Source: Eledone cirrhosa (taxonomy: Eukaryota). From it: a stretch of DNA of 64,000 bases. Positions 1,467-28,268 of this stretch are shown in pieces. The notes below the pieces were generated by a model. The model saw nothing but the letters and a program-made list of their open reading frames with translations. It did no database searches and was not told where the DNA came from. Position numbers and translations under genes: made by a program. Where the stretch lies: the NCBI GenBank assembly GCA_964016885.1, contig OZ024742.1, positions 122,512,001 through 122,576,000 of the forward strand, given 5' to 3'. Within the stretch, counting starts at the first letter, position 1, and the number at the start of each line of letters is the position of its first letter.

Positions 1467-1511
<45 letters not shown>

Positions 1512-2025: not shown

Positions 2026-2100
2026 GACCATCCACATGCCCAAATCTTTCGCGGTCGCCAAAATGGAACAATATATAATACAAACAACAAAGGCAGACGC

Positions 2101-4262: not shown

Positions 4263-4311
4263 ATAATTATTTCTACTTTTGGTACAAGGCGAGCAATTAC
4301 CCCAGGGCATT
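4263..4311 (-). mobile_element. SINE 3'-end fragment
   Basis: The reverse complement matches the 3' end (TGGGTAATTGCTGGCCTTGTG...AGTAGAAA.AATTAT) of the SINE copies at 59564 and 30420. Confidence 0.55.
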
Positions 4312-4322
4312 AACTTCAATGT

Positions 4323-4362
4323 TTATTATTATTATTATTATTATTATTATTGTTGTTGTTAT
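4323..4362. repeat. (TTA)n/(TTG)n microsatellite, left border of the retrotransposon cluster
   Basis: Direct reading; forms the 3' flank of the minus-strand R4 copy. Confidence 0.95.
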
Positions 4363-4766
4363 TCCTTGAATCTCAGTCATTGATGTTGGTTAACTGGAAA
4401 GTCCGTTGGATTGAATATCAAGCCACTACCTGCAGCCTCAGATATTCAGGACGTATCGGAGGGTTCTTGCTGTTCCAAGCAAGCATGCCTTTTGAAGCGT
4501 TCCAAAAAGCGTGAAGGGGCCGATTTTCTTTAACCATCCCTGGAAACCTTTGGAGATAGTCCCCAGTGCGCCTATGACAATCGGGATCACTTTGACTTCA
4601 TGGCAGTTCCAAATCCTTTTCACCTCCCACTTTAGGTCCTGGTATCGGTTAATTTTCTCCCTCTCCTTCTCTTGCACTCTCGTGTCGAACGGGCAGGCCA
4701 CATCCACAATCAGGCACGATCTTTTTTCTTTGTCCACAACCACCAGGTCAGGTCTATTGTGTTCCA
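4363..4766 (-). mobile_element. R4/Dong family A, heavily 5'-truncated copy (RLE domain plus 3' UTR)
   Basis: ORF 4438..4767 contains RPDLVVVD...IVDVACP...EK..RYQDL...PIVIGALG, a PD-(D/E)xK restriction-like endonuclease. It is highly similar to 13900-14303 and is flanked by (TAA)n on both sides. Confidence 0.92.

Positions 4767-4802
<36 letters not shown>
4767..4802. repeat. (ATT)12 microsatellite spacer
   Basis: Direct reading; lies between R4 family A (5' end) and R4 family B (3' end). Confidence 0.95.
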
Positions 4803-7787
4803 TGCATTTATCTTGCTTTATGTTTATACGAGTTATCACCAAGTCACAACCAGTGACCTCAAGAGACAACAAGGTCCGCCATGTTCAAGAAAGAACACAC
4901 ATATTCACACATGCATCCTTAGTGTTTAGACTTGTGATGTACTTATATTGACAGGATCTTCCTTAGTATATGGGCAGTTCCCATTAGTACTATCTTTTGT
5001 ATTTCTCCTATACGCGGGTTTCCTGGGATTTGCGATAAGTAGTCGTTAGACCCCTTAGGTATCATTCCCAGAGCGCCTACAACCACTGGTATTGTTTTAG
5101 TTCTCAATTTCCACATTTTTCCAATTTCTATCTCCAGGTCCTTATACTTGCTCAATTTTTCAAATGTTTTTATAGATACATTCTTGTCTATTGGAACAGA
5201 CATATCAATTAGCAGGCATACCCTCCTTTGAAAGTCCTTCAATATTATATCAGGTCTATTTGCATCTATTTTTCGGTCTGTTTGGATGCTAAAGTTCCAC
5301 AAGATTGAGATGTGATCTTTTTCAAGTATGGGAGGTGGTTGATGCTCCCACCAATTCTTTTGATGGGGCAGGTCAAAATGCTTACACATTATCCAATGTA
5401 TGTATTGTGCAGCTCTGTCATGCCTGTTTAGGTATTCGGTTGGAGCTATAGGACTGCACATTGAAATTATATGGTCAATGGTCTCTGGTTGTTTTTTGCA
5501 TACACGGCATAATGGGCTGCACCCATTTTTTATTATGTTGGCTTGGTCATTTTTTGTTGGCAGACACTGATCTTGTGCGGATATAATCAGTCCTTCAGTC
5601 TCCGATTTCAGTCCAGAGGATGCCAACCACTGATGGGTTAAAGTTTTGTCAACATCAGGATTGTTAGCTCGCTCTGGGTATTTTCCATACAGAGGCTTTT
5701 CTTGCCATTTCTTAGCCAGTTTCTGTAGCAGTTCTTTCTTTGCAGTTACTTTTACCTGCTTTGCTTTTTCTGTGTTTTCCATTTCAGCAGTAAATGGGAC
5801 TTCTGAAATTTGTAGTCCATTACTGTATCTTTGTGCATCTTTTGTAATGGAATATGATCTTTTGGTGCTTTCGTGTTTCAAAACGAGTTTGATCATCCAA
5901 TCATGTGATTCCCTTACATATGTGGATAATCCAATTGTTGCAGTTTTCAACGCAATGTCTAACTGGATTAACCCACGTCCTCCTTCTTTCCTAGGGAGAT
6001 ATATTCTATCTATGTCTGCCTTAGGGTGATGCATTCTGTGCATGGTTAAGAATTTTCGGATTTTTGTATCGAGCCTACGGATCTCTGTGCTTGACCAGTT
6101 GATGACATTGTAACTGTAGGTTACTACTGGTATGGCAAGCGTGTTTATGGCATCGATCCTATTCCTTGCATTCAATTCCGTTCTTAAGATTGCTCTGACT
6201 CTGCGGTAACATTCCTTCCTTATCCTTTCCCTCATTGTCGAGTGCTTGATTCCGTCTCCTTCACAAACACCTAGATATTTGTAAGTTTGTTCTTGATCAA
6301 GCTCTCTTATCACGTTCCCCCGATCAAGATTAATGTCTGAACTCTTCAGCAGCTTTCCTCTGGTGAACGTTGCTTTGGCGCATTTATCCAGTCCAAACTC
6401 CATTTTAATGTCATCACTGAACTGCTTCACAGTGGATAATAGCCCTTGCAATTGTTCATCATTTTTTGCGAATAGTTTCAGGTCATCCATGTAGAACAGG
6501 TGATTAATGGTTTTGTCATAGACTCTATATCCATGTTTTGTTTCATTGAGCATTTTACTTAATGGTACAAGTGCGATGCAGAATAAAAGCGGTGATAAAG
6601 AGTCACCCTGAAAAATTCCACAATTAATGTTAACTTCTCCAGCTTCCAGTGATTTTGTTTCACTATTCAAAAGGAGTGTCGTTCTCCATGTCCTCATACT
6701 GAATGACAAAAACCTCCTGACAACGGGGATATTTTGAAAATCTCTAAACATTTTTCAATCCAACTGTGTGGCAAACTATCAAATGCTTTTTTATAATCTA
6801 TCCAAGCAATCGATAGATTTTTGTGTCTATTATGACAATCTTCCAGTATCATTTTGTTAACCAGAAGCTGATCCTTACAGCCATATGAGCCTCGTTTACA
6901 CCCTTTCTGCTCAATGGGAAATAGGTCATTTGTTATCAGGTGGTCATATGTGTATTCAGTTAGGACTGATGTTAACATTTTATACATTGTGGTCAAGCAG
7001 GTTATCGGTCTGTAATTTTTGGGATTGTTTGTCTCATCATTCTTCGGTAGCAGGAATGTAATGCCGTTAACTAGCCATGATGGTATCTTTTCTGGCTCCT
7101 TAACAATTTCATTGTAAAGTTGGGCCAACAGCTCATGAGACTCTGTGAAGGCATTTATCCAAAAGTTTTGTATTTTGTCTTTTCCTGGGGATTTCCATTT
7201 GCTGGTTTTTCTTAGAGCCAAGCGCAGCTGTTCAACTGTTATATTTTCCCATGTTTGTTCTTCAAGGTGAGCTGTTTCTTTCATTTGTCTGTCTATCCAT
7301 GGGGCATGTATGTTATGAACTTTTTATTCGGCCCAGATCTTTTCCCAGAATTCTTGCACTTCCTCCTTGGGTGGTATTGATTTAGCAGTTATTGTTGACT
7401 TACCAATTTTTCTGTAGAAGTTTCTTTGGTTGTTTTTGAACATATTATTGTCCTTATAGAATCTAGATCGTTTTTCAAAGCGCCTTATACGAGCAGCTTT
7501 GGCCGACACTTTTTGCTTGATTGTTTCTATCAGCATGTCTATGTCACATGTTGATCTTATACTGTACTTTTTTTTCAATTTTCTAAGTTTAGTTTGTTTA
7601 ACATGTTCACCTACTTTATAGTTTGTTAAAATTTCTATGTCAGATCGGAGAAGGTTTATTTGGCGATTGATGTTATCTTGCCAAGTAGATTTCTTGTGGG
7701 AATTCCTTTGTTTTTTCATCTTCACTCCACATAAGTGAGTGGTGACTTTAGCCGATGCATAATAGAGATGATTTAAGTCAGTAATGT
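4803..7787 (-). mobile_element. R4/Dong family B, 5'-truncated, frameshifted RT + CCHC + RLE
   Basis: ORF pieces 7324-7725, 6694-7284 (KSPGKD, NYRPITCL, WIDYKKAFDS) and 4943-6751 (GIFQGDSLSP, FYMDDLK, CRVC..ET..HI..C...RHD, RPDI, PVVVGALG). The 3' UTR differs from family A. (TAA)n at both ends. Confidence 0.93.
4943..7725 (-). pseudogene. Disrupted single ORF of R4/Dong family B (RT-RLE polyprotein)
   Basis: Three consecutive ORFs in different frames reconstruct one RT-RLE protein. Confidence 0.88.
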
Positions 7788-7816
7788 TTATTATTATTAT
7801 TATTATTATTATTATT
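7788..7816. repeat. (TTA)~10 microsatellite spacer
   Basis: Direct reading; lies between the R4-B 5' end and the Tx1 copy 1 5' end. Confidence 0.95.
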
Positions 7817-8031
7817 GAATGCCATGGTTGACGGAGGCTCGGCTCTGTAAGGTATAGTAATTTTTAACCGTTAAAACAATTGTAAATTGTTTAAAACTTG
7901 AACCAAATTGTTGATAAAGACACCCTCCTCCTCGTGAGAGGGGTCTTTCTGTCCGTTATTTGGCCCTTCGGGGCTAAATAACCAGTTATTGGGGTTTTGT
8001 ACCCAACATTTCATTTTAAACAAAAAACAAC

Positions 8032-10128
8032 ATGGCTACGAAAAAGAAATTTCATACGTCACTCCCACTCATTCCGTCTTCTTCTTCCTCAATCATCACT
8101 ACAGCAGAGAGAAGATTGTCTCTCTCCCTCCCTTCTTTAAATGTGTCTCTCTCCCTCCCTTCTCTTTCGCAAGTGACGAAAGAAAAGAAAAGTCTCGTGC
8201 AAAGCGTGCAAGGTTTCTCCACGACGACGACGACAGCGACGAAACAGGTGTGCGGGAAATACGAAAACCCAGTTCATTCGTCTGACGTCAGGAATAATAG
8301 CAGTAGCAGCCGTAATAACAACAGCAACAGTGACAATGAAAACAACAGTAGCAGCCGCAACAGCATCACCAGCAGCATAAACAACAACAGCATTAGCAGC
8401 AGCAACACCAACAACAACTACAGCAACAGCGGCGGAGGCAGTAGTCGTAGTACCTGCAGCAACAACAAAAGTAGCAGCAGCTCTGACGACAACAACAACA
8501 GCAGAGAAAAACCAATCTCATTTGCAGGTATTGCGAAAAACTTGGAAACAATCCTCATAACAAATGAGGAATTAGAGGAAGCGAAGAAGATGGTGACAAA
8601 GAACGGACACCGAGCAATCTGCAAGGCAGCGGAAAATTTTTTCGAAACCCAAGAGCACTGTACGGTCACGTACCGTACAGTAAGTACAAAATCCCGTAGG
8701 GTGGAAAGAGCCACAGAGGCCCAAATACAAAAAGCCTTGGGGTCTGTGTGGCAGCGGAAAACGCACATCACCCGAGGCAAAAAATATGCCACCGTAGACG
8801 TACTTTTTGCCACACCCCAGGAGGCAAAGGCCCAATCAGTAGTGACCCTAAGGAGCGAGGAAATGGTGTTGGTGCCCTCCTACTGCGGGCAAAAAATTGT
8901 GAGGGTCAAACTGACCCACGTCCCCCCCGGAATGACCCCTTCTTGGCTGGCCGCGTCTGTCCTCGTCGGAATCGAGGACAAAACAACTGTACTACAAGTA
9001 CAGAAAAAAGTAAGAGAAGATTGGGTCGGCTCCTCCATTGAGATGCTAATCCAAACCAACCAGGAGTGCATCGAAGCTATCCCGGATGTGATAGACTTCG
9101 ATAACGGCACTCAACTGCCCATAAGTGTTGAGGGCAAACGCCCGAAATGCTTTCGCTGTGGATCGAAGACTCACCTCAGGGCCTTCTGCAACGAGAAGAC
9201 CCTGAGAAAGGAGAAAACCCCCCTCCTTCCGAATCCGGCTCCACGGCTACCAGCAACAGGACAAGCGGCAACCAGGAACGATAGGTCCGTGGCACCCATA
9301 CCCAAGCCACGGAAATCAAAGACAGCAGCAGCAGTGGAAATATTAACAACAACAACAGCAATACCAAATGCAGCTGCAACAGAGACTCCAGTGCAAACAT
9401 CACCAACAACAACAAGTGAAAGAGTGGAGCTGGTACCCCTCCCCGACATTACAGAATCAGACATGGAGTGTGAGGTGGGAGAGGGATGGCAAAAGGTCGC
9501 AAGAAGGCACAAACGCAGAAGCAGCGCATCGTCGCCTTTGAAAAGGGAGGAAAGAAATGAGAAAAGGGTAAAGTCTACTGCAAAGAGACCCACAGCAGCA
9601 ACACCACCAACACCATCACCACCCACACCAGCACCACCATCACCACCGGCGACAACCCCACCGCCAACAACACCTTCAACACCACCACCACAAGCACCAA
9701 CATCGCAAACACAACAACAAAACACACACACCCAGCAACAACGACAAGAAAATAGCAGAACCACACCCCACCCCCAGAAAAACAAATGCACGGCAATAAA
9801 CACACACAACAAGAAACTAATGACTTACATAATTGAACACACAGACATTTCACAACAGGACTACATAATACCAGCACCAATCAAAACGCCAACTAACATA
9901 AGACTGCTAAAAATAGCACAGAAACAATACACAAACATTAAAACGAAATTCCCCAACGCAGTTGGTGATTTCAGGGACCTAGGAGGAACCATCAATCGAA
10001 GAGTATATTCAGATATTCTCTTAGAAGAGCCGACGACCAGCCGAAGGGACGATTCAACGGTCCCTTCACCAGACGATCAAGTGAAAAGGGATGTAAAAAC
10101 CATCCCTCCTCTACCAAAAGTACGGTAA
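8032..10128 (+). CDS. Tx1 ORF1, gag-like nucleic-acid-binding protein (698 aa)
   Basis: CCHC knuckle CFRCGSKTHLRAFC, N/S-rich and P/T-rich low-complexity tracts, basic WQKVARRHKRR motif. Open with the same length in copy 3. Confidence 0.9.
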   Translation: MATKKKFHTSLPLIPSSSSSIITTAERRLSLSLPSLNVSLSLPSLSQVTKEKKSLVQSVQGFSTTTTTATKQVCGKYENPVHSSDVRNNSSSSRNNNSNSDNENNSSSRNSITSSINNNSISSSNTNNNYSNSGGGSSRSTCSNNKSSSSSDDNNNSREKPISFAGIAKNLETILITNEELEEAKKMVTKNGHRAICKAAENFFETQEHCTVTYRTVSTKSRRVERATEAQIQKALGSVWQRKTHITRGKKYATVDVLFATPQEAKAQSVVTLRSEEMVLVPSYCGQKIVRVKLTHVPPGMTPSWLAASVLVGIEDKTTVLQVQKKVREDWVGSSIEMLIQTNQECIEAIPDVIDFDNGTQLPISVEGKRPKCFRCGSKTHLRAFCNEKTLRKEKTPLLPNPAPRLPATGQAATRNDRSVAPIPKPRKSKTAAAVEILTTTTAIPNAAATETPVQTSPTTTSERVELVPLPDITESDMECEVGEGWQKVARRHKRRSSASSPLKREERNEKRVKSTAKRPTAATPPTPSPPTPAPPSPPATTPPPTTPSTPPPQAPTSQTQQQNTHTQQQRQENSRTTPHPQKNKCTAINTHNKKLMTYIIEHTDISQQDYIIPAPIKTPTNIRLLKIAQKQYTNIKTKFPNAVGDFRDLGGTINRRVYSDILLEEPTTSRRDDSTVPSPDDQVKRDVKTIPPLPKVR

Positions 10129-10163
10129 GTGGTCTTTCCCATCTTTTCCACTCTATTTTAAAC

Positions 10164-13100
10164 ATGACCTCACTCAGAATAGGCAGCATAAATGCGCGTG
10201 GCTTGGGGTCGTCATGGAAGCAGGGTCACCTGCTCAACGACCTCAGGTCACTAAACATAGATGTAGTGGCCATCAGCGAGACCAGAATCTCCGAAGCACG
10301 GGCCTTCGCACCGATCTTCGGCGGCTACGATGTGTACGCATCTCCCAGCCGTCCTGGATCGGGTGGAGGAGTTGCTGTGCTTTTTCGGAGAGGTTTGGAT
10401 CTCGCCATACGGGCCATCTTCCTGGACCCAGAGGGTAAGCTGGTGGTGCTGGACGTGACCAGCGGAGACGGGCAAGCTTTCAGGCTAGTGGCCGTCTATG
10501 CCCCGACAGGAGCAGGGCGGCCTGATTTCTTCCGGCGTCTGGAGACCTTTCTTGGAACGTCCCGCTCTTTAGTGTTAGTGGGCGACTGGAACGGGATCTT
10601 AGATGCACGCTGGGACTGTGTGGGATTAGCGGATAGGGGTGGAGGGTGCAAGAGCCTCACCAACCTGCTCAGGCGTTTTGAACTGTCTGACAGGTACCGA
10701 TTGGATTTCCCGAATGTGCCAATGTGGACTTGGACAAACCGCATAGGGTCATCCAGATCATATCTAGATAGAGTATTTTGTAGGGAAATAGATAGGTCTA
10801 GCATAGGCTGTCCACAATTCAAGATAGTCAGCTACACGGACCACAAATTCGTGACCTGTGTGCTTGACTTAGATAGGCTTCATAGACGAGGACCCGGTTA
10901 CTGGAAGCTAAACGCGTCCTTACCAGCGCGCAAGGCCTACAGAGACCGGATTAGCGAACTAGTTAAGCGGGCGTTGACGGGGGCCATCGTCAACAACAAG
11001 TGGTGGTTTGCTCTGAAAAGAGCGATTAGAATAGAATCGATTAGGTTTAGTAAGGCTTTAGCAATAGAGAAAAATAGAGCAGAGGGAGAACTAGTTAGAA
11101 AATTAGACGAGGCGCTTAGCAAAGGCATTGCGACCGACGTGCTTGCGGCGAAATTGGCCCTTGACCAATTCTTCAATGCAAAGCACGAAGGCTGCGTTGT
11201 CAGAGCAAGGGTGCGTGCTCTCAGACACGAGGGGACGAAAGCCGTTCAATGGGCCCGAGTGGCGGAGGCGCGTCGTGGCAACAAAGCCACGATCCGGTCT
11301 TTGGTGGACCACGACGGGCGCATGCTACTCGATCCCGGGCAAATGTGTGAAGCTTTTCAGCGACACTTCGCTCAGCTGTTCGGGGGCAGCGGGGGGCCGG
11401 GTAGAGGGATGGACTTTAGTGTCTACCTCGACGGACTGCCGCGGCTCTCGGCCACTGAGGCGAAGTGTTGCGAAAAGCCGATAACAGCCGCTGAAGTACG
11501 GGAGGCAATGACTGGCTGCACAAGGGGTAAATCGCCTGGTTTGGATGGTCTGCCCTATGAACTTTACGTACAGATGCCAGACTTGTTCGGAGGCCTCTTG
11601 GCGGACGTCTACTGCAACTGGCAACAGAACGGGAGAATTCCCAGTTCTGTGAGCCGAGGAGCGGTGGCACTGCTGAGAAAGGATCCGAACAAGGGGGATA
11701 ACATAGACAATTTCCGGCCCATAACTCTGCTAAACACAGAGTTTAAGATTTTGGCCAAGGTGCTAGCAAATAGGTTGGCGCTTGTCGTTGGTGGTCTGGT
11801 GGGAGAGGCGCAGACATGCGCCATTCCCGACAGATCCATCCACGACAACCTCCACCTCATGCGATACATCGTAGAGAGGGTAGCTAGGGAACCTGGCACG
11901 GGTGGGTCCTTGATCAATTTAGATCAGTCGAAAGCTTTCGATAGGGTCGACCATCGTTACCTAGCGGCAGTCCTGAGGGCGGCTGGCTTTGGGCCCGTCT
12001 TCAGAGGCTGGATCGCTGCCATGCACAGCGACATCTGCTCTGTGGTGAGAGTGAACGGTCACCTGTCGGAACCGTTCAACATCATGCGCTCGGTCCGCCA
12101 AAGATGTCCCCTCTCGTCCCTCTTGTACGTATTGACTCTCGAGCCATTACTGCACAAACTGGAGACGTTGAGGGGAGTCCCGCGCGAACTAGGATGCGGA
12201 AGATCCGTGTCAGCATATGCGGACGATGTCACCGTAGTGGTGTCGAACGCCAAACACATCGAGGCGATCGGCACTACACTAAGAGAATACGAAGCGGTGA
12301 CAGGAGCAATGATCAACCAGGAAAAGTCAGTGGGCCTGCAGCTCGGCACCTGGAGAGGCAGGTCCATGCCGTCCAACAGCGTCGTCGGGCGCTGGACGGA
12401 CGGACCGGTTAAATTGCTAGGGGTCTGGTTCGGTCCGGACCTCCAGACGGACAAAAACTGGGACGAGGTGACGAGCAGGGTGGCTTCTCTCACCCAGAAA
12501 TGGGCCGAGAGGAAGCTATCCCTGAAAGGTCGAGCGGAGGTGGCTAACGCGTACATCGCGTCTGTCATCTGCTACCGCCTAACCGTCGTACCTTGTCCTA
12601 AGCCTCGCCTGACTGCGCTGGAGCGTTTGCTCTTTCGCTTTTTGTGGAAGGGACGTGCTCCGATGGTCAGGCGGTCCATCTGTTGTCAACACCCGCTACG
12701 TGGAGGGCTGGGCATGCCGTGGCTGATGATGCGCAGGCACGCGCTCAGGCTACGACATCTCCACCTCTTCCTCGACGGTGATCAGGTGTGGTCGCCGTTT
12801 GCTAGACGCGTTTTTCCCCAGCTCGTTTCCTTGACGGAGCTGCAGTCCTGGGTCAAGCGAAGACCGAGAGGGAGCGCCTGGAGACTGGAATGTCTTCAGG
12901 CGCTCACAGCCCTCGACCAATCGGGCAATGTGATCGGTGGAAACTCCACCTCGGCGTTCTATAGAGGATTAGTGGAGGAGAAGAGCGACGACGTACTTGG
13001 GGAAACTCTAGGCGTCGACGAAAATCAACTAGCCAATCTCTTCGGAAGAACTTTCGGGCCAGGGCCTATGGACAACTTCCAGAAATCTCTGGCCTGGCAG

Positions 13101-13583
13101 TGCTACCGAGGAGCCTTGCCAGTTCGGGATAAACTCTACAGGCATGGAGGTGCCGTCAGCCGGGCATGTCCGAGATGCGCGCAGGGCGACGAAACCGTCC
13201 TGCACGCACTCGTCCAGTGTCCGAAAATTGCTGACTTGTGGGTTTATGTCGAACACCTGCTGTCGCGTTTAGGACGGATCCAGCTATCATCTGAGTCTAT
13301 CGTGAGGATTGCCCCGCCCTCCTCCTTTAGCCGGGAAGGGCAGGCAGTTTTTATCTGTCTGGTGGCCATGGCGAAAGAGATAGTATGGTGGACACGTTTG
13401 AAAGGGCTGAAGACGAGCACTTACCTCTTCGGTGATGCTCTGATTGACTTTTTCAAATTTCATTTGAAAAGGAAAATCAGAGTAGAGAAGGAAGTGCTCT
13501 CTTCCCAGCATTTTGTTGAAAGATGGGTGAGAGAAGCAAGAATGGCCCGAGTGAATGGGCCGACTCTGAGTATATATCTGTAA
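10164..13583 (+). CDS. Tx1 ORF2: APE endonuclease + reverse transcriptase + C-terminal zinc finger (1139 aa)
   Basis: APE motifs SINARG, ISET, VYAP, GDWN, YLDR, TDH. RT motifs through YADD. C-terminal CPRC...ET..H....C. Motif B' reads QRCPLS rather than QGCPLS. Confidence 0.95.
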   Translation: MTSLRIGSINARGLGSSWKQGHLLNDLRSLNIDVVAISETRISEARAFAPIFGGYDVYASPSRPGSGGGVAVLFRRGLDLAIRAIFLDPEGKLVVLDVTSGDGQAFRLVAVYAPTGAGRPDFFRRLETFLGTSRSLVLVGDWNGILDARWDCVGLADRGGGCKSLTNLLRRFELSDRYRLDFPNVPMWTWTNRIGSSRSYLDRVFCREIDRSSIGCPQFKIVSYTDHKFVTCVLDLDRLHRRGPGYWKLNASLPARKAYRDRISELVKRALTGAIVNNKWWFALKRAIRIESIRFSKALAIEKNRAEGELVRKLDEALSKGIATDVLAAKLALDQFFNAKHEGCVVRARVRALRHEGTKAVQWARVAEARRGNKATIRSLVDHDGRMLLDPGQMCEAFQRHFAQLFGGSGGPGRGMDFSVYLDGLPRLSATEAKCCEKPITAAEVREAMTGCTRGKSPGLDGLPYELYVQMPDLFGGLLADVYCNWQQNGRIPSSVSRGAVALLRKDPNKGDNIDNFRPITLLNTEFKILAKVLANRLALVVGGLVGEAQTCAIPDRSIHDNLHLMRYIVERVAREPGTGGSLINLDQSKAFDRVDHRYLAAVLRAAGFGPVFRGWIAAMHSDICSVVRVNGHLSEPFNIMRSVRQRCPLSSLLYVLTLEPLLHKLETLRGVPRELGCGRSVSAYADDVTVVVSNAKHIEAIGTTLREYEAVTGAMINQEKSVGLQLGTWRGRSMPSNSVVGRWTDGPVKLLGVWFGPDLQTDKNWDEVTSRVASLTQKWAERKLSLKGRAEVANAYIASVICYRLTVVPCPKPRLTALERLLFRFLWKGRAPMVRRSICCQHPLRGGLGMPWLMMRRHALRLRHLHLFLDGDQVWSPFARRVFPQLVSLTELQSWVKRRPRGSAWRLECLQALTALDQSGNVIGGNSTSAFYRGLVEEKSDDVLGETLGVDENQLANLFGRTFGPGPMDNFQKSLAWQCYRGALPVRDKLYRHGGAVSRACPRCAQGDETVLHALVQCPKIADLWVYVEHLLSRLGRIQLSSESIVRIAPPSSFSREGQAVFICLVAMAKEIVWWTRLKGLKTSTYLFGDALIDFFKFHLKRKIRVEKEVLSSQHFVERWVREARMARVNGPTLSIYL

Positions 13584-13844
13584 ACTAAAGGTGGAAAACT
13601 GGGAGAGGGCACTTGCCTTGGTGGTCAGGGTCATTGTGGCTTTTTACGGGGCTTTCTCCACAAATGTCCCTCCGAAGTCTCCCCCCTATTGGGGAATTTT
13701 TCATTGTTATTTTCATTGTTATTTTTGTTACATCCTCTGTTTTTGTTTTTTTTACACGCAGAAATGCCCATTTGTACCGTCCTGCATTGTCCTGCACTGT
13801 CCTTAATGTCTACTTTATGTAAACCCTTGTGGTTAATAAAGAAA

Positions 13845-13846
<2 letters not shown>

Positions 13847-13891
<45 letters not shown>

Positions 13892-13899
13892 GTTATTAC
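13847..13899. repeat. (ATT)~17 microsatellite shared as 3' flank by Tx1 copy 1 and R4-A (tail-to-tail)
   Basis: Direct reading. Confidence 0.95.
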
Positions 13900-16817
13900 T
13901 CCTTGAGTCTCAATCATTGATGTTAGTTAACTGGAAAGTTTGTTGGAATGAATATCAAGCCACTACCTGCAGCCTCAGATATTCAGGACGTATCGGAGGG
14001 TTCTTGCTGTTCACAGCAAGCATGCCTTTGGAAGCGTTCCAAAAAGCGTGAAGGGGACGATTTTCTTTAACCATCCCTGGAAACTTTTGGAGATAGTCCC
14101 CAGTGCACCTATGACAATCGGGATCACTTTGACTTCATGGCAGTTCCAAATCCTTTTTATCTCCCACTTTAAGTCTTGGTATCGGTTAATTTTCTCCCTC
14201 TCCTTCTCTTGCACTCACGTGTCGAATGGGCAGGCCACATCCACAATCAGGCACGATCTTTTTTCGTTGTCCACAACCACCAGGTCAGGTCTATTGTGTT
14301 CCAGTTTCTTGTCCGTCTGTATCCTAAAATCCCACAGCATCTTCACCTGATCGTTCTCTATCACCGCCTCTGGCTTATGCTCATACCATTTCTCAGAATG
14401 TGGTAAATTGTTTACTTTGCACAGGTGCGAGTGGATTACCCTGCCCATCACATCATGTCTCCAGCCTTTATAGTGGGTCTGGGCTAGGTGTTTACACTCG
14501 GATACAATGTGAGCCACAGTCTCCTCTCTCCACAGATCGTGCACAGTGGGCTAGCTTCCTCCTTGTAAATATGGTGTTTCAATCACTTCGTTTTGAGGGC
14601 CCGCTCCTGCGCAGCCATTAACATTCCTTCTGTAGCCTTTTTAAGGTCTCCTCTTTTCAACCAGTTCCATGTCTGTGGATCTCTAAATTCAGTTTTCTCA
14701 AAGAAGGTACTATGAAGGGATTTTTCCTGAAGGCTGCTCTTTCTCCTTGATGTTATTTCCTCCTTGGACATCCCCTGGCCAATTGTCACCTCCTTCAGTA
14801 CAGTTCTGAGCATTGGCTCCTTACTATCATTCACGTATTTGTGTAGGTTGTTTTTCTCCATCTGAACACAGTCCTCTATGCTGATAAGACCTCTTCCACC
14901 CTCAGATCTCCTTAAGTAGAGTCTATCGACATCACTCCTCTTGTGGGACATGTTGTAGATAGTCAATAGCTTCCTAGTCTTCCTTCCATTTCTTTTTGTT
15001 CAGCAACATTCCATCTCAGAATTCCCGCACTGTACCTAATAATAGACACAGCTCGGGAATTTACTGCACTTATGGCATTCCTACTGTTCAGATGTGACTT
15101 CAATACGCTCCTTACTCTCCGAAGGTATTCAGTTCTTATCAATTCCTTTATTTTTTTGTTCTTGATGTCATCAGCCTCCAGAACGCCCAAATACTTGTAT
15201 CCTTCCTCAGAGTCAATTTCCTTTATCATCTCACCTGTTGGTATCTGGATTCTGTTACTTCTGCTCAACCTACCCCTCCTCATCACAATGACTCCACACT
15301 TACTAATACCAAATTGCATACATAAATCATTGCTGAAAATACGGACAGTGTCAACAAGCACATCCAACTCCTTCTCACTCTTCCCGAAGAGCTTAAGATC
15401 GTCCATGAAGAGGAGGTGATTGTTGGTAAGCCCTCCCTTTCCCAACCTGTATCCTGCTCTCACCTTTCGCAGTACACTGGTCAGGGGCATCAGGGCAAGG
15501 ACAAACAACAGAGGGGACAGGCTATCGCCCTGGAAGATACCTCTCTTGATCTTCACGCTTCCCAAGGATTCTCCAGTTGATGTCAGCTCTGTTTCCCAGG
15601 ACCTCATACTTTTGCCCAACAACTGTCTGATGTTATCTGCCACATTGAAGATCTCCAGGCTTCTGGTGATCCAAGAATGAGGCACCATGTAAAATGCCTT
15701 TCTGTAGTCTATCCATTCCATGGCAAGATCAGTGTGTCTCCTCTTGCAATTCCCCATTACCATCTTATCAATAAGTAACTGCTCCTTTGTACCACGTAAC
15801 TTCTTTCGGCATCCTTTCTGTTCGTCCGGTAACAAGTTGTTTGTGTGGAGGTGATGGTAGATTTCCTCAGACATAATGCTTGTCAACAGTTTCCACATTA
15901 CGGACAGACATGTGATAGGTCTATAGTTGGTAACATCATTACCCTTGATTCGGTCTTTCATTATCAGAACTGTGGTACCTTTTGTCAACCACTCTGGTAC
16001 CTCACCTGACATCAAGCAGTCATTGAACATGGTTGTCAGTTTCGGGTGGAGGGATGTTATGCTTTTAATCCAATACCTCTGAACACCATCTGGGCCTTGT
16101 GATTTCCAGTTGGTTAGTTTTTTGGCCTGCCCCTTAAGAGTTTCAACTGTGATACTCAAATCAGTTTGTCGGTGTGCCTGTTCACTAATCTCCTTCTGTA
16201 CTGTCTCAATCCACACTGCCTGGTCATTATGTTTAACATCCTGCTCCCATATTCCTCTCCAGAATGTTTTAGTTTGTTCCGCCTCAGGGATCAAGTCGTT
16301 TCCTCTTTCTTTCCCTTCAAGCTGTCCAAACAACATCTTCTGGTTGTTGTCGAACATGCGGTTCTGTCTATACTGACTGACTCTGTTCTCGTATCGCCTG
16401 ATCTTTGCACTCTTTGCTACAATGCGTTGCTTCAGTTCCTCTATGATAATATTTAGCTTTTTCCTCCTAGTTTTGTACTTTATTTCCAGTCTAATTTTTG
16501 TGTCTATGTTTTTTAGTGTCCCATTCAGTAGGGACTCAAGCTTTCCAATGTCATTTCTCATTTCCCTGATTTGACCACTCAGTCGTTTCTTCCACCATGG
16601 CTCTGCTCTTTCTTGTCTTTTGTTTCCTCTCGCTTTTATACCAAGTAGTTTCCTCACAGTATTTGCTGTTTATTTGAGGATATTGTTGCACTGGTGAAGG
16701 CTCCTTGCCTCAAGGTATGGGATGACTTTGTTTACCTTAGCTGTTGTTTCTTTTAACTTTTTCCTGTCTACAAATCTTAGGTTCATAGTTCTCCCACTAT
16801 CATTGTTCAATTCATCT
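13900..16817 (-). mobile_element. R4/Dong family A, longer 5'-truncated copy with disrupted RT-RLE ORF
   Basis: ORF pieces 14963-16657 (NYRPITCL, GIFQGDSLSP, LFMDDLK, YKYLG), 14583-14966, 14215-14544 and 14011-14214. The 3' end matches 4363-4766. Confidence 0.92.
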
Positions 16818-18951
16818 ATTTACCCCTTGTGCAACTATGGGATAACATAGACAATTTCCGGCCCATAACTCTGCTAAACACAGAGTTCAAGATTTTGGCC
16901 AAGGTGCTAGCAAAGAGGTTGGCGCTTGTCGTTGGTGGTCTGGTGGGAGAGGCGCAGATCCATCCACGACAACCTCCACCTCATGCGATACATCGTAGAG
17001 AGGGTAGCTAGGGAACCTGGCACGGGTGGGTCCTTGATCAATTTAGATCAGTCGAAAGCTTTCGATAGGGTCGACCATCGTTACCTAACGGCAGTCCTGA
17101 GGGCGGCTGGCTTTGTGCCCGTCTTCAGAGGCTGGATCGCTGCCATGCACAGCGACATCTGCTCTGTAGTGAGAGTGAACGGTCACCTTTCGGAACCGTT
17201 CAACATCATGCGCTCGGTCCGCCAAGGATGTCCCCTCTCGTCCCTATTGTACGTATTGACTCTCGAGCCATTACTGCACAAACTGGAGACGTTGAGGGGG
17301 GGTCCCGCGCGAACTAGGATGCGGAAGATCCGTGTCAGCATATGCGGACGATGTCACCGTAGTGGTGTCGAACGCCAAACACATCGAGGCGATCGGCACT
17401 ACACTAAGAGAATACGAAGCGGTGACAGGAGCAATGATCAACCAGGAAAAGTCAGTGGGCCTGCAGCTCGGCACCTGGAGAGGCAGGTCCATGCCGTCCA
17501 ACAACGTCGTCGGGCGCTGGACGGACGGACCGGTTAAATTGCTAGGGGTCTGGTTCGGTCCAGACCTCCAGACGGACAAAAACTGGGACGAGGTGACGAG
17601 CAGGGTGGCTTCTCTCACCCAGAAATGGGCCGAGAGGAAGCTATCCCTGAAAGGTCGAGCGGAGGTGGCGAATGCGTACAGCGCATCCGTCATCTACTAC
17701 CGCCTGACCGTCGTACCTTGTCCTAAGCCCCGCCTGACTGCGCTGGAGCGTTTGCTCTTTCGCTTCTTGTGGAAGGGACGCGCTCCGATGGTCAGGCGGT
17801 CCATCTGCTGTCAACACCCGCTACGTGGAGGGCTGGGCATGCCGTGGCTGATGATGCGCAGACATGCGCTCAGGCTACGACATCTCCACCTCTTCCTCGA
17901 CGGTGATCAGGTGTGGTCGCCGTTTGCAAGACACGTTTTACCCCAGCTCGTCTCCTTGACGGAGATGCAGTCCTGGGTCAAGCGAAGACCGAGAGGGAGC
18001 GCTTGGAGACTGGAATGTCTTCAGGCGCTCACAGCCCTCGACCAATCGGGCAATGTGATCGGTGGAAACTCCACCTTGGCGTTCTATAGGGGATTAGTGG
18101 AGGGGAAGAGCGACGACGTACTTGGAGAAACTCTAGGCGTCGACGAAAATCAACTAGCCAATCTCTTCGGAAGGACTTTCGGGCCGGGGCCTATGGACAA
18201 CTTCCAGAAATCCCTGGCCTGGCAGTGCTACCGAGGAGCTTTGCCAGTTCGGGATAAACTCTACAGGCATGGAGGTGCCGTCAGCCGGGCATGTCCGAGA
18301 TTCGCAAAGGGCGACGAAACCGTCCTGCACGCACTCGTCCAGTGTCCGAGCATTGCTGACTTGTGGGTTTATGTCGAACACCTGCTGTCACGCGTAGGAC
18401 GGATCCAGCTATCAGCTGAGTCCATCGTGAGGATTGCCCCGCCCCCTTCCTTTAGCCGGGAAGGGCAGGCAGTTTTTATCTGTCTGGTGGCCATGGCGAA
18501 AGAGATAGTATGGTGGACACGTTTGAAAGGGCTGAAGACGAGCACTTACCTCTTCGGTGATGCCCTGATTAACTTTTTCAAATTTCATTTGAAAAGGAAA
18601 ATCAGGGTAGAGAGGGAAGTGCTCTCTTCCCAGCATTTTGTTGAAAGATGGGTGAGAGAAGCAAGTATGGCCCGAATGAATGGGCCTTCTCTGAGTATGT
18701 GTCTGTAAATTAAAGGTGGAAAACTGGGAGAGGGCACTTGCCCTGGTGGTCAGGGCCACTGTGGTCTTTTAATGGGCTTTCTCCACAAATGTCCCTCGGA
18801 AGTCTCCCCCCTATTGGGGAATTTTTTCTTTGTTATTTTATTTCAACCTCCGTTTTTTACACGCAGAAATGCCCATTTGTACCGTCCTGTATTGTCCTGT
18901 ACTGTCCTTAATGTCTACTTTATGTGAACCCTTGTGGTTAATAAAGAAAAC
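16818..18951 (+). mobile_element. Tx1 copy 2, 5'-truncated within the RT, with a short inverted 5' segment
   Basis: Sense homology to copy 1 begins at 16839 (= 11695). 16818-16833 is the reverse complement of 11517-11532. Carries a 20-bp deletion and a +1 frameshift. Ends AATAAAGAAAAC then (ATT)6. Confidence 0.93.
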
Positions 18952-18969
18952 ATTATTATTATTATTATT
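18952..18969. repeat. (ATT)6 spacer between tandem Tx1 copies 2 and 3
   Basis: Direct reading. Confidence 0.95.
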
Positions 18970-19185
18970 GAATGCCATGGTTGACGGAGACTCGGCTCTG
19001 TAAGGTATAGTAATTTTTAACCGTTAAAACAATTGTAAATTGTTTAAAACTTGAACCAAATTGTTGATAAAGACACCCTCCTCCTCGTGAGAGGGGTCTT
19101 TCTGTCCGTTATTTGGCCCTTCGGGGTTAAATAACCAGTTATTGGGGTTTTGTACCCAAAATTTCATTTTAAACAAAAAAACAAC

Positions 19186-21282
19186 ATGGCTACGAAAAAG
19201 AAATTTCATACGTCACTCCCACTCATTCCGTCTTCTTCTTTCTCAATCATCACTACAGCAGAGAGAAGATTGTCTCTCTCCCTCCCTTCTTTAAATGTGT
19301 CTCTCTCCCTCCCTTCTCTTTCGCAAGTGACGAAAGAAAAGAAAAGTCTCGTGCAAAGCGTGCAAGGTTTCTCCACGACGACGACGACAGCGACGAAACA
19401 GGTGTACGGGAAATACGAAAACCCAGTTCATTCGTCTGACGTCAGGAATAATAGCAGTAGCAGCCGTAATAACAACAGCAACAGTGACAATGAAAACAAC
19501 AGTAGCAGCCGCAACAGCATCACCAGCAGCATAAACAACAACAGCATTAGCAGCAGCAACACCAACAACAACCACAGCAACAGCGGCGGAGGCAGTAGTC
19601 GTAGTACCTGCAGCAACAACAAAAATACCAGCAGCTCTGACGACAACAACAACAGCAGAGAAAAACCAATCTCATTTGCAGGTATTGCGAAAAACTTGGA
19701 AACAATCCTCATAACAAATGAGGAATTAGAGGAAGCGAAGAAGATGGTGACAAACAACGGACACCGAGCAATCTGCAAGGCAGCGGAAAAATTTTTCGAA
19801 ACCCAAGAGCACTGTACGGTCACGTACCGTACAGTAAGTACAAAATCCCGTAGGGTGGAAAGAGCCACAGAGGCCCAAATACAAAAAGCCTTGGGGTCTG
19901 TGTGGCAGCGGAAAACGCACATCACCCGAGGCAAAAAATATGCCACCGTAGACGTACTTTTTGCCACACCCCAGGAGGCAAAGGCCCAATCAGTAGTGAC
20001 CCTAAGGAGCGAGGAAATGGTGTTGGTGCCCTCCTACTGCGGGCAAAAAATTGTGAGGGTCAAACTGACCCACGTCCCCCCCGGAATGACCCCTTCTTGG
20101 CTGGCCGCGTCTGTCATCGTCGGAATCGAGGACAAAACAACTGTACTGCAAGTACAGAAAAAAGTAAGAGAAGATTGGGTCGGCTCCTCCATTGAGATGC
20201 TAATCCAAACCAACCAGGAGTGCATCGAAGCTATCCCGGATGTGATAGACTTCGATAACGGCACTCAACTGCCCATAAGTGTTGAGGGCAAACGCCCGAA
20301 ATGCTTTCGCTGTGGATCGAAGACTCACCTCAGGGCCTTCTGCAACGAGAAGACCCTGAGAAAGGAGAAACCCCCCCTCCTTCCGAATCCGGCTCCACGG
20401 CTACCAGCAACAGGACAAGTGGCAACCAGGAACAATAGGCCCGTGGCACCCATACCCACTCCACGGAAATCAAAAACAGCAGCAGCAGTGGAAATATTAA
20501 CAACAACAACAGCAATACCAAATGCAGCTGCAACAGAGACTCCAGTGCAAACATCACCAACAACAACAAGTGAAAGAGTGGAGCTGGTACCCCTCCCCGA
20601 CCTCACAGAATCAGACATGGAGTGTGAGGTGGGAGAGGGATGGCAAAAGGTCGTAAGAAGGCACAAACGCAGAAGCAGCGCATCGTCGCCTTTGAAAAGG
20701 GAGGAAAGAAATGAGAAAAGGGTAAAGTCTACTGCAAAGAGACCCACAGCAGCAACAACACCAACACCATCACCACCCACACTAGCACCACCATCACCAC
20801 CGGCGACAACCCCACCGCCAACAACACCTTCAACACCACCACCACAAGCACCAACATCGCAAACACAACAACAAAACACACACACCCAGCAACAACGACA
20901 AGAAAATAGCAGAACCACACCCCACCCCCAGAAAAACAAATGCACGGCAATAAATACACACAACAAGAAACTAATGACTTACATAATTGAACACACAGAC
21001 ATTTCACAACAGGACTACATAATACCAGCACCAATCAAAACGCCAACTAACATAAGACTGCTAAAAATAGCACAGAAACAATACACAAACATTAAAACGA
21101 AATTCCCCAACGTAGTTGGTGATTTCAGGGACCTAGGAGGAACCATCAATCGAAGAGTATATTCAGACATTCTCTTAGAAGAGCCGACGACCAGCCGAAG
21201 GGACGATTCAACGGTCCCTTCACCAGACGATCAAGTGAAAAGAGATGTAAAAACCATCCCTCCTCTACCAAAAGTACGGTAA
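19186..21282 (+). CDS. Tx1 ORF1 of copy 3 (698 aa, open)
   Basis: ATG at 19186 is homologous to 8032; same length; few substitutions. Confidence 0.88.
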   Translation: MATKKKFHTSLPLIPSSSFSIITTAERRLSLSLPSLNVSLSLPSLSQVTKEKKSLVQSVQGFSTTTTTATKQVYGKYENPVHSSDVRNNSSSSRNNNSNSDNENNSSSRNSITSSINNNSISSSNTNNNHSNSGGGSSRSTCSNNKNTSSSDDNNNSREKPISFAGIAKNLETILITNEELEEAKKMVTNNGHRAICKAAEKFFETQEHCTVTYRTVSTKSRRVERATEAQIQKALGSVWQRKTHITRGKKYATVDVLFATPQEAKAQSVVTLRSEEMVLVPSYCGQKIVRVKLTHVPPGMTPSWLAASVIVGIEDKTTVLQVQKKVREDWVGSSIEMLIQTNQECIEAIPDVIDFDNGTQLPISVEGKRPKCFRCGSKTHLRAFCNEKTLRKEKPPLLPNPAPRLPATGQVATRNNRPVAPIPTPRKSKTAAAVEILTTTTAIPNAAATETPVQTSPTTTSERVELVPLPDLTESDMECEVGEGWQKVVRRHKRRSSASSPLKREERNEKRVKSTAKRPTAATTPTPSPPTLAPPSPPATTPPPTTPSTPPPQAPTSQTQQQNTHTQQQRQENSRTTPHPQKNKCTAINTHNKKLMTYIIEHTDISQQDYIIPAPIKTPTNIRLLKIAQKQYTNIKTKFPNVVGDFRDLGGTINRRVYSDILLEEPTTSRRDDSTVPSPDDQVKRDVKTIPPLPKVR

Positions 21283-21317
21283 GAGGTCTTTCCCATCTTT
21301 TCCACTCTATTTTAAAC

Positions 21318-24300
21318 ATGACCTCACTCAGAATAGGCAGCATAAATGCGCGTGGCTTGGGGTCGTCATGGAAGCAGGGTCACCTGCTCAACGACCTCAG
21401 GTCACTAAACATAGATGTAGTGGCCATCAGCGAGACCAGAATCTCCGAAGCACGGGCCTTCGCACCGATCTTCGGCGGCTACGATGTGTACGCATCTCCC
21501 AGCCGTCCTGGATGGGGTGGAGGAGTTGCTGTGCTTTTTCGGAGAGGTTTGGATATCGCCATACGGGCCATCTTCCTGGACCCAGAGGGTAAGCTGGTGG
21601 TGCTGGACGTGACCAGCGGAGACGGGCAAGCTTTCAGGCTAGTGGCCGTCTATGCCCCGACAGGAGCAGGGCGGCCTGATTTCTTCCGGCGTCTGGAGAC
21701 CTTTCTTGGAACGTCCCGCTCTTTAGTGTTAGTGGGCGACTGGAACAGGATCTTAGATGCACGCTGGGACTGTGTGGGATTAGCGGATAGGGGTGGAGGG
21801 TGCAAGAGCCTCACCAACCTGCTCAGACGTATTGAACTGTCTGACAGGTACCGATTGGATTTCCCGAATGTGCCAATGTGGACTTGGACAAACCGCATAG
21901 GGTCATCCAGATCATATCTAGATAGAGTATTTTGTAGGGAAATAGATAGGTCTAGCATAGGCTGTCCACAATTCAAGATAGTCAGCTACACGGACCACAA
22001 ATTCGTGATCTGTGTGCTTGACTTAGATAGGCTTCATAGACGAGGACCCGGCTACTGGAAGCTAAACGCGTCTTTACCAGCGCGCAAGGCCTACAGAGAC
22101 CGGATTAGCGAACTAGTTAAGCGGGCGTTGACGGGGGCCATCGTCAACAACAAGTGGTGGTTTGCTCTGAAAAGAGCGATTAGAATAGAATCGATTAGGT
22201 TTATTAAGGCTTTAGCAATAGAGAAAAATAGAGCAGAGGGAGAACTAGTTAGAAAATTAGACGAGGCGCTTAGCAAAGGCATTGCGACCGACGTGCTTGC
22301 GGCGAAATTGGCCCTTGACCAATTCTTCAATGCAAAGCACGAAGGCTGCGTTGTCAGAGCAAGGGTGCGTGCTCTCAGACACGAGGGGACGAAAGCCGTT
22401 CAATGGGCCCGAGTGGCGGAGGCGCGTCGTGGCAACAAAGCCACGATCCGGTCTTTGGTGGCCAACGGCGGGCGCATGCTACTCGATCCCGGGTTAATGT
22501 GTGAAGCTTTTCAGCGACACTTCGCTCAGCTGTTCGGGGGCAGCGGTGGGCCGGGTAGAGGGATGGACTTTAGTGTCTACCTCAACGGACTGCCGCGGCT
22601 CTCGGCCACTGAGGCGAATTGTTGCGAAAAGCCGATAACAGCCGCTGAAGTACGGGAGGCAATGACTGGCTGCACAAGGGGTAAATCGCCTGGTTTGGAT
22701 GGTCTGCCCTATGAACTTTACGTACAGATGCCACACTTGTTCGGAGGCCTCTTGGCGGACGTCTACTGCAACTGGCAACAGAACGGGAGAATTCCCAGTT
22801 CTGTGAGCCGAGGAGCGGTGGCACTGCTGAGAAAGGATCCGAACAAGGGGGATAACATAGACAATTTCCGGCCCATAACTCTGCTAAACACAGAGTTCAA
22901 GATTTTGGCCAAGGTGCTAGCAAAGAGGTTGGCGCTTGTCGTTGGTGGTCTGGTGGGAGAGGCGCAGATCCATCCACGACAACCTCCACCTCATGCGATA
23001 CATCGTAGAGAGGGTAGCTAGGGAACCTGGCACGGGTGGGTCCTTGATCAATTTAGATCAGTCGAAAGCTTTCGATAGGGTCGACCATCGTTACCTAGCG
23101 GCAGTCCTGAGGGCGGCTGGCTTTGGGCCCGTCTTCAGAGGCTGGATCGCTGCCATGCACAACGACATCTGCTCTGTGGTGAGAGTGAACGGTCATCTGT
23201 CGGAACCGTTCAACATCATGCGCTCGGTCCGCCAAGGATGTCCCCTCTCGTCCCTCTTGTACGTATTGACTCTCGAGCCATTACTGCACAAACTGGAGAC
23301 GTTGAGGGGAGTCCCGCGCGAACTAGGATGCGGAAGATCCGTGTCAGCTTATGCGGACGATGTCACCGTAGTGGTGTCGAACGCCAAACACATCGAGGCG
23401 ATCGGCACTACACTAAGAGAATACGAAGCGGTGACGGGAGCAATGATCAACCAGGAAAAGTCAGTGGGCCTGCAGCTCGGCACCTGGAGAGGCAGGTCCA
23501 TGCCGTCCAACAGCGTCGTCGGACGCTGGACGGACGGACCGGTTAAATTGCTAGGGGTCTGGTTCGGTCCGGACCTCCAGACGGACAAAAACTGGGACGA
23601 GGTGACGAGCAGGGTGGCTTCTCTCACCCAGAAATGGGCGGAGAGGAAGCTATCCCTGAAAGGTCGAGCGGTGGTGGCTAACGCGTACATCGCGTCTGTC
23701 ATCTGCTACCGCCTGACCGTCGTACCTTGTCCTAAGCCTTGTCTGACTGCGCTGGAGCGTTTGCTCTTTCGCTTTTTGTGGAAGGGACGTGCTCCGATGG
23801 TCAGGCGGTCCATCAGTTGTCAACACCCGCTAAGTGGAGGGCTGGCATGCCGTGGCTGATGATGCGCAGGCACGCGCTCAGGCTACGACATCTCCACCTC
23901 TTCCTCGACGGTGATCAGGTGTGGTCGCCGTTTGCTAGGCGCGTATTTCCCCAGCTCGTTTCCTTGACGGAGCTGCAGTCCTTCAAGCGAAGACCGAGAG
24001 GGAGCGCCTGGAGACCGGAATGTCTTCAGGCGCTCACAGCCCTCGACCAATCGGGCAATGTGATCGGTGAAAACTCCACCTCGGCGTTCTATAGAGGATT
24101 AGTGGAGGGTAAGAGCGACGACGTACTTGGGGAAACTCTAGGCGTCGACGAAAATCAACTAGCCAATCTCTTCGGAAGAACTTTCGGGCCGGGGCCTATG
24201 GACAACTTCCAGAAATCTCTGGCCTGGCAGTGCTACAGAGGAGCCTTGCCAGTTCGGGATAAACTCTACAGGCATGGAGGTGCCGTCAGCCGGGCATGTC

Positions 24301-24712
24301 GAGATGCGCGCAGGGCGACGAAACCGTCCTGCACGCACTCGTCCAGTGTCCGAAAATTGCTGACTTGTGGGTTTATGTCGAACACCTGCTGTCGCGTTTA
24401 GGACGGATCCGACTATCATCTGAGTCCATCGTGAGGATTGCCCCGCCCTCCTCCTTTAGCCGGGAAGGGCAGGCAGTTTTTATCTGTCTGGTGGCCATGG
24501 CGAAAGAGATAGTATGGTGGACACGTTTGAAAGGGCTGAAGACGAGCACTTTCCTCTTCGGTGATGCTCTGATTGACTTTTTCAAATTTCATTTGAAAAG
24601 GAAAATCAGAGTAGAGAGGGAAGTGCACTCTTCCCAGCATTTTGTTGAAAGATGGGTGAGAGAAGCAAGAATGGCCCGAGTGAATGGGCCTACTCTGAGT
24701 ATATATCTGTAA
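21318..24712 (+). pseudogene. Tx1 ORF2 of copy 3, disrupted
   Basis: Split into 21318-23021, 22936-23859, 23739-24401 and 24296-24712 by a 20-bp deletion and further indels. Confidence 0.92.
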
Positions 24713-24974
24713 ATTAAAGGTGGAAAACTGGGAGAGGGCACTTGCCTTGGTGGTCCGGGTCATTGTGGCTTTTTACTGGGCTTTCTCCACAAATGTCCCT
24801 CCGAAGTCTCCCCCCTATTGGGGAATTTTTCATTGTTATTTTCATTGTTATTTTTTGTTACATCCTCTGTTTTTGTTTTTTACACGCAGAAATGCCCATT
24901 TGTACCGTCCTGCATTGTCCTGCACTGTCCTTAATGTCTACTTTATGTAAACCCTTGTGGTTAATATAGAAATC

Positions 24975-24992
24975 ATTATTATTATTATTACC

Positions 24993-25050
<58 letters not shown>
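24975..25050. repeat. (ATT)5 + (AGT)~19 microsatellite, right border of the cluster
   Basis: Direct reading. Confidence 0.95.
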
Positions 25051-25539
25051 ACAGTATTACTAGTAGAAATAGGAATAATGTTAATGTTGGTTGGTTAGGT
25101 GGTAGTAGTGGTAAATGGTAGTGGTGTAGGGTGTAGTAATAATAATATTATTAATTGTGGTAGTTGCAGGAAGGGGAAGTGGGAGTAGGAGTAGTAATAG
25201 TTGTTGTAGTGTTAGTGTTCATTGTTGTAGTAACAATAATGCCGGTGGTGTGTTGAGTACTAGCTGTGGTGGTAATAGTCACCCCGGGCACCCATTGCCT
25301 TAGGACAGAAAGAAAAAAATATATATTCATCATTTTATTTTTTCTTACCTAAATATGAGAAAGAAATTAAATGTGTTCTTGTTTGATGGAAATGTTAGAA
25401 AATCATTCTATATATTTTTTTAACGATGTAACTAGCTGAAAGGAAACATAACACATGAAACATGAAAAGTAATAGAAATTTATTAAAAAAACCTCGTATG
25501 TTTCACATACATTTTTTTCATTCTGGATCCATGTCGATA

Positions 25540-28194: not shown

Positions 28195-28196
28195 TA

Positions 28197-28268
<72 letters not shown>

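Follow-up and report, generated by a model that had tools for sequence, protein, structure and literature searches.

How do two classes of long interspersed nuclear element (LINE) with unrelated endonucleases come to lie, interleaved and in opposite orientations, in a single ATT/TAA microsatellite? The question is raised by a 64-kb stretch of the 3.0 Gb genome of Eledone cirrhosa (contig OZ024742.1:122,512,001-122,576,000; hereafter the window, in whose positions all coordinates are given), where a 20.7 kb array holds six LINE copies, with (ATT)n tracts between them and one junction that carries no tract. Three of the copies are Dong/R4-type elements (R4) with a restriction-like endonuclease (RLE), and three are Tx1 elements with an apurinic/apyrimidinic endonuclease (APE). 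We consider it probable that the six copies are successive insertions into one microsatellite that both classes use throughout the genome, each in its own orientation, and the shared, polarised targeting is well supported as a real and general phenomenon.

The array begins with a (TTA)n tract with GTT variants (4323-4363, plus strand; nine perfect TTA, 13.7 units with variants), which is the 3' flank of R4A-1 (4364-4766, minus strand), a 5'-truncated Dong/R4-type copy that retains the end of the RLE domain and the 3' untranslated region (UTR). An (ATT)12 tract (4767-4802, plus) leads to R4B (4803-7787, minus), a 5'-truncated and frameshifted copy of the same type with a reverse transcriptase (RT; YMDD), a CCHC finger and a PD-(D/E)xK-type RLE motif. 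A TTA/ATT tract of 9.7 units (7788-7816, plus) separates the 5' end of R4B from that of Tx1-1 (7817-13846, plus), a full-length 6.03 kb APE element of subfamily A in which both open reading frames, ORF1 and ORF2, are open. The next tract (13847-13898, plus; 15 perfect ATT, 17.3 units with variants) separates two 3' ends, those of Tx1-1 and of R4A-2 (13899-16818, minus), a 2.9 kb copy that has no 5' end, contains stops and frameshifts, and shares 95% identity with R4A-1. The head-to-head junction between R4A-2 and Tx1-2 has no ATT tract and is occupied instead by a 20-bp inverted piece of Tx1 ORF2 (16819-16838, minus), whose source lies about 170 bp upstream of the point at which Tx1-2 starts. 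Of Tx1-2 (16839-18951, plus) only the 3' 2.1 kb is present, with about 96% identity to both Tx1-1 and Tx1-3; after it come an (ATT)6 tract (18952-18969, plus) and Tx1-3 (18970-24974, plus), a full-length subfamily A copy with ORF1 open and ORF2 frameshifted (98.65% identity to Tx1-1). The right flank consists of (ATT)5 and then (AGT)19 with variants (24975-25066, plus), which indicates that the array site is a compound microsatellite. Six ATT-type tracts lie within 4323-24989, and the rest of the window has only two, of four units each. The order and strands that a first-pass annotation of the window had assigned to the six copies, three RLE elements on the minus strand and three APE elements on the plus strand, are thereby confirmed, and the element coordinates agree with its statement that no copy is nested in another.

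That annotation had also described the two classes as unrelated, which is true of their endonucleases but not of their reverse transcriptases, since the RT is common to both and homologous at 23-26% identity. The R4 copies carry an RT, then the CCHC finger, then the PD-(D/E)xK RLE motif, with no match to an APE family and, among solved structures, with matches to R2 proteins only; R4B and R4A share 39-43% amino-acid identity. In Tx1-1, ORF1 spans 8032-10128 and ORF2 10164-13583, the latter with Pfam matches to Exo_endo_phos (the N-terminal APE), RVT_1 and a C-terminal zf-RVT; one of its conserved RT motifs reads RQRCPLS, and it is nearer to human L1 ORF2p (E 3e-52) than to R2 (2e-20). From domain layout and target, the one class is best labelled as putative Dong/R4 and the other, on the same grounds, as putative Tx1. 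Members of the Tx1 clade have in ORF1 a CCHC knuckle instead of the coiled coil of the L1 type, and such a knuckle, CFRCGSKTHLRAFC, is present in ORF1 here. The closest look-alikes of this ORF1 are zf-CCHC and ZCCHC3 RNA-binding domains (scores 0.91-0.94), so that a ZCCHC3-like RNA-binding region is a lead only; the accessible part of PMC9004415 does not mention ZCCHC3, which leaves the lead without backing from that paper. We found 44 homologues of Tx1, with relatives of about 40% identity in other organisms. Tx1 subfamilies are about 95% alike in ORF2 and the 3' UTR, about 50% identical in the core of ORF1 and unrelated in the 5' UTR. They occur on contig C1 at loci L145, L168, L189, L193 and others, at least two further heads exist, and all heads begin directly after ATT, mostly with G.

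To see how these elements insert elsewhere, we counted copies by exact 3'-end patterns, which give lower bounds; a DNA search with the Tx1 3' UTR skips common words and returned only 14 diverged copies. The genome carries at least 7,811 Tx1, at least 7,503 R4A and at least 4,764 R4B exact 3' ends. The repeat terminates both classes, which makes the 5' flank the real test of targeting. The sequence ATTATTATT, that is (ATT)3 in one phase, precedes 1,660 of 1,707 (97%) exact full-length Tx1A heads. In a sample of the first 100 Tx1 3' ends of contig C1, each taken with 10 kb of sequence, about half the copies are full-length, and all 52 of these, from subfamilies A and B, have a 5' tract; subfamily B, despite its unrelated 5' UTR, likewise begins right after ATT. 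Among the truncated Tx1 copies a 5' tract is present in 18 of 48, against a background of 13 in 2,026 windows, which brings the sample to 70 of 100, above the 20% flank criterion given in the accessible part of PMC4494074. All 60 R4 copies that were found by their 3' end have a 3' tract, and 23 of the 26 whose truncated 5' end lies inside the locus adjoin ATT there as well. The expectation that copies elsewhere would have ATT at the 5' side thus stands for full-length Tx1 and for truncated R4, but not for most truncated Tx1. On the 3' side, ATT follows 97 of 100 Tx1 copies, and in 8 it is a single unit, in some cases then followed by (ACT)n, (CTT)n or another sequence; from these single-unit junctions we infer that the long 3' tracts are mostly target and that the encoded tail is short. 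At L151, L158, L160 and L183 the Tx1 copies lie in (ACT)n or (CTT)n, which indicates a tolerance of related triplets.

Insertions of both classes follow one polarity rule, in which the sense strand of Tx1 is the ATT strand and that of R4 is the TAA strand. The rule is obeyed by 94 of the 95 elements that directly adjoin the 100 Tx1 copies (a count in which Tx1-Tx1 joints may figure twice) and by 52 of the 57 R4 3' ends in the same loci. For 17 of the 100 Tx1 3' ends, within the first 55.5 Mb of C1, an R4 3' end lies within 200 bp, and all 17 pairs are tail-to-tail. Under two null models the mean number of such pairs was 0.14 and 0.21 and never exceeded 2 in any of 500 draws each, so that the observed number is not due to chance. 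Over the same 55.5 Mb, 185 of 257 copies (72%) are clustered; 57 of the 62 clusters have one polarity and 36 hold both classes together. There are 44,308 (ATT)6 tracts that begin in one of three phases, from which we estimate a genome total of roughly 10^5, and random filling of 50,000-150,000 tracts would place only 9-24% of copies at shared sites. Cluster sizes are described better by a geometric than by a truncated Poisson distribution (log-likelihood -177.9 vs -185.7). The non-random orientation and the co-clustering beyond random tracts that had been named as checks on the reading of this one locus are therefore found well outside it. The idea of a shared landing pad survives as a general habit of the two classes and not as a property of this site: the window locus is typical of the genome, no special landing pad, and the concept itself has precedents.

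Sequence identity and tract length bear on how such arrays are built. The best distant matches of the three Tx1 copies in the window are 99.8, 98.3 and 98.5% identical to them, while their mutual identity is 94.7-98.3%; being nearer to distant copies than to each other, they arose by separate insertions and are not copies of one another. Beside 28 Tx1 copies (one of them mis-anchored) the median tract length is 40.5 nt for 5' tracts and 39 nt for 3' tracts, and unoccupied tracts are shorter, with a median of 8 units (n = 13). Target duplications of 17 bp (L170) and 11 bp (L151) are visible at interrupted tracts. Among the first 30 (ATT)6 tracts on C1, 16 touch Tx1 or R4, 13 are free and 1 was left out as unclear; 10 of the 13 free tracts follow, as judged by eye, one of two recurring short-repeat ends, putative tails of short interspersed elements (SINEs). 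(ATT)n also forms the end of two abundant short repeats, and heads of short repeats often follow ATT tracts in the Tx1 polarity (L195-L224; window 26199-26331, 51000-51107, 57539-57617 and 59595-59723). These repeats may be SINEs that both seed and use the same tracts; a match to tRNA was not returned for them by Rfam.

A sequence of events that would produce such arrays can be outlined. In target-primed reverse transcription the orientation of an insertion fixes the strand that serves as primer, so that (AAT)n would prime Tx1 and (ATT)n would prime R4. A Tx1 RNA with at least one AUU at its end would use a nick in the (AAT)n strand for priming, and an R4 RNA ending in UAA one in the (ATT)n strand. 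Each insertion would split the tract and, through target duplication and slippage, leave a tract of about full length on either side, and occupied sites would thus gain targets, letting arrays expand in a rich-get-richer manner. Many of the starting tracts are likely to have been tails of short interspersed repeats. At the tract-less junction of the window, either a Tx1 insertion with 5' inversion and loss of target, or a subsequent deletion whose repair added a templated insert, could have left the inverted 20 bp; twin priming and deletion repair are known mechanisms, and each fits the inverted piece. Growth of arrays by target renewal, which fits both tract lengths and cluster sizes, is likely, and the cluster sizes would suit heterogeneity among sites equally well. 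The wider proposal, that a self-renewing, dispersed (ATT)n target, seeded by the tails of short repeats, is common to Tx1, Dong/R4 and the short repeats, that each class extends arrays for the other, and that tens of thousands of copies have been funnelled in this way into polarised arrays, we regard as a serious but tentative one, slightly more apt to fail than to hold.

Several observations weigh against reading the array as successive insertions into a shared and self-renewing target. A 5' tract is missing from 29 of the 48 truncated Tx1 copies and has the opposite polarity in one more, and among the 18 truncated copies that are at least 94% identical to a window copy only 4 have one. As in the window, some of the tract-less copies directly adjoin the 5' end of a truncated R4 copy; frequent internal deletions could be the reason why truncated Tx1 copies have lost their tract. 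Tract-less head-to-head R4/Tx1 junctions are seen at L143, L168, L175, L227, L244 and L251. Polarity is mixed in 5 of the 62 clusters, and geometric cluster sizes are also expected if tracts differ in attractiveness or if selection removes insertions unevenly. The informative target duplications number only 2-3, and some arrays are tandem duplications: L261-L263, at 99.5-99.9% identity and with an R4B junction that is repeated, L028/L029 and L242/L243. We found no empty allele, four sequencing runs searched over window 3300-5000 having yielded fragmented contigs without an informative joint. Lastly, the sampling of flanks and clusters drew largely on the first 55 Mb of contig C1, and the sampled tracts are not independent of one another.

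The alternative that best withstands these data keeps the shared target and moves its cause from the enzyme to the RNA. Here the Tx1 APE would be a loose nuclease that prefers T^A and nicks both strands, and pairing of the AUU end of the RNA with the nicked (AAT)n strand would set the orientation. The constant ATT|G phase of the 5' junctions of full-length copies also suits a nick at T^A in the ATT strand, the 3' junction needs one ATT unit only, and copies in (ACT)n and (CTT)n occur; for SART1, annealing of the RNA to the target has been proposed (PMC7265360, in the part available). Against it, the same source reports that endonuclease swaps between TRAS1 and SART1 transfer specificity, and abundant (TA)n tracts, which offer T^A steps, are yet rarely the direct flank. 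We put this account at a little under an even chance, and the narrower question of whether RNA-tail pairing rather than the APE sets the Tx1 strand is about evenly balanced. It would refine the shared-target reading, not replace it, and the convergence would then lie in the RNA tails and not in the enzymes.

A second possibility is that arrays owe their growth mainly to unequal recombination or tandem duplication between the tracts at their flanks, and not to new insertions. Near-identical repeated units at the three arrays mentioned above (L261-L263, L028/L029 and L242/L243) speak for it, as does a 34-bp interrupted tract that L152 and L153 have in common. However, identity falls below 99.5% in 13 of 17 near pairs, and nearly all copies are matched equally well or better far away; arrays mix families and truncation points, and the six distinct copies of the window contradict it at that locus. 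As the main route of expansion we therefore judge it improbable. Duplications of an element together with its tract, 0.4-8 kb in size, are seen at L028/L029, L261-L263, L241-L243 and L164/L165.

It is very improbable that the tracts are encoded tails only and that clustering is a passive build-up in repeat-rich regions. In favour of this view, the repeat terminates both classes, a 5' tract is missing from most truncated Tx1 copies, and passive build-up near microsatellites has been proposed for Waldo-A/B (PMC3812793, in the part available). But the tracts at the 5' ends of truncated R4 (23 of 26) cannot be encoded by the element, the polarity holds across families, and the null model that retains local density gives 0.21 tail-to-tail pairs against the 17 observed. 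That the cluster is a mis-assembly joined at ATT tracts, to which the failure of any of the short-read contigs examined, built by a procedure that skips repeats, to cross an ATT junction might point, is scarcely credible, given that the tracts are 15-50 bp long within contigs of hundreds of Mb, that the same junction types recur at many loci, that the copies are distinct, and that the tract-less junction is present in one short-read contig. Short-read contigs break at ATT tracts, and parts of the region are present in sequencing runs labelled as several organisms. The contig in question, of 79 bases at depth 3 (run X5, which may derive from the source sample), carries the 16819-16838 junction with 29-30 letters beyond the edges of the insert, slightly short of the 31 required to count as a bridge, and neither a second run of the X5 sample nor two other runs covered the junction; the contig gives weak support for the assembly at this point.

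The neighbourhood of the array contains other retroelement remains. An older, degenerate R4-type copy, R4C (about 22-3900, minus), which like the (AGT)19 run is an addition to the first-pass annotation, is broken by insertions at about 1118-2000; the breaks include a 150-bp hairpin resembling a miniature inverted-repeat transposable element (1495-1644) and a repeat at 1694-2037 with a second copy at 27818-28208. Coincidence of the array with the very 5' end of R4C was considered and is not supported, as similarity to R4C stops near 3700-3900 and a short-repeat fragment of opposite polarity lies between R4C and the left tract (about 4244-4312). Further right are a GIY-YIG endonuclease fragment (32133-32852, minus), likely from a Penelope-like element, and a 396-aa frame with a weak RT match (37098-38288, plus), a separate retroelement remnant.

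Each ingredient of this system has a precedent; the Tx1 target, the combination and the scale appear unreported. The statements about earlier work that follow rest on the accessible parts of the sources named. Dong targets TAA repeats in Bombyx mori, Anopheles gambiae and Biomphalaria glabrata (PMC3812793), with TAA on the sense strand, so that a primer for the 5' junction consists of (TAA)n before the sense strand, and bears a 5' ribozyme like that of hepatitis delta virus (HDV) (PMC3774820). The R4 copies here have the same TAA target, polarity and RT-CCHC-RLE layout, but form two families of about 40% identity that have over 12,000 exact 3' ends between them and lie interspersed with an APE element. 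They may also differ from Dong at the 5' end, where no HDV-like ribozyme was detected: Rfam gave no match at nine loci, some with R4 5' ends, a crude descriptor search found nothing convincing, and the window copies lack 5' ends. Over window 1-27000 and the nine loci, Rfam returned no ribozyme and no tRNA-like head, only low-complexity microRNA noise. Among Tx1 elements, Kibi targets (TC)n and Koshi (TTC)n (PMC3812793), and crocodilian families target (TTCC)n/(TTTC)n (PMC4494074). The Tx1 described here resembles them as an APE element of the L1 group that enters a simple repeat, and is unlike them in that its target is (ATT)n, is shared with an RLE family and is entered in one junction phase despite different 5' ends.

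Sharing of a target between lineages is likewise known. Keno (Tx1, APE) and Utopia (RLE) reached the U2 snRNA gene in parallel (PMC4640811), an APE and an RLE lineage on one target as here; their identical 3' flanks imply the same orientation, and insertion breaks the gene, whereas in the present case the orientations are opposite and the target survives. TRAS1 and SART1 both belong to the R1 clade. They enter (TTAGG)n telomeric repeats in opposite directions (PMC7265360), two families in one repeat as here, but are related APE elements at telomeres, while the elements studied here have non-homologous endonucleases and occupy dispersed microsatellites on many contigs. For octopods, a repeat survey of Octopus vulgaris describes recently active Dong-R4 and L1-Tx1 families, and the word 'target' is absent from its available text (PMC13282606); an octopus Dong element is mentioned elsewhere, in the part available, with no target data (PMC9115989), and PMC3747384 and PMC9004415 contribute nothing further. 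In the literature searched there is neither a Tx1 family that targets (ATT)n nor an array shared by Tx1 and Dong; Repbase, Kojima and Fujiwara 2004, and the supplements and figure labels of PMC4494074 lie outside it and may list such a target.

With one repeat, two unrelated nucleases, opposite polarities and thousands of young copies, these arrays are a natural experiment on whether nuclease or RNA tail determines the target and orientation of a LINE. They also yield a feedback model of genome growth that can be tested, with new insertions landing at sites that are already occupied, and lead to the prediction that ATT/TAA microsatellite markers in this lineage will often be element junctions. 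A Tx1 APE element with a near-absolute junction phase in a neutral repeat is in addition a candidate for targeted-insertion tools. If the self-renewing, shared target is true, much of the long ATT tracts and of the recent LINE growth in this genome would be the product of one undescribed feedback system.

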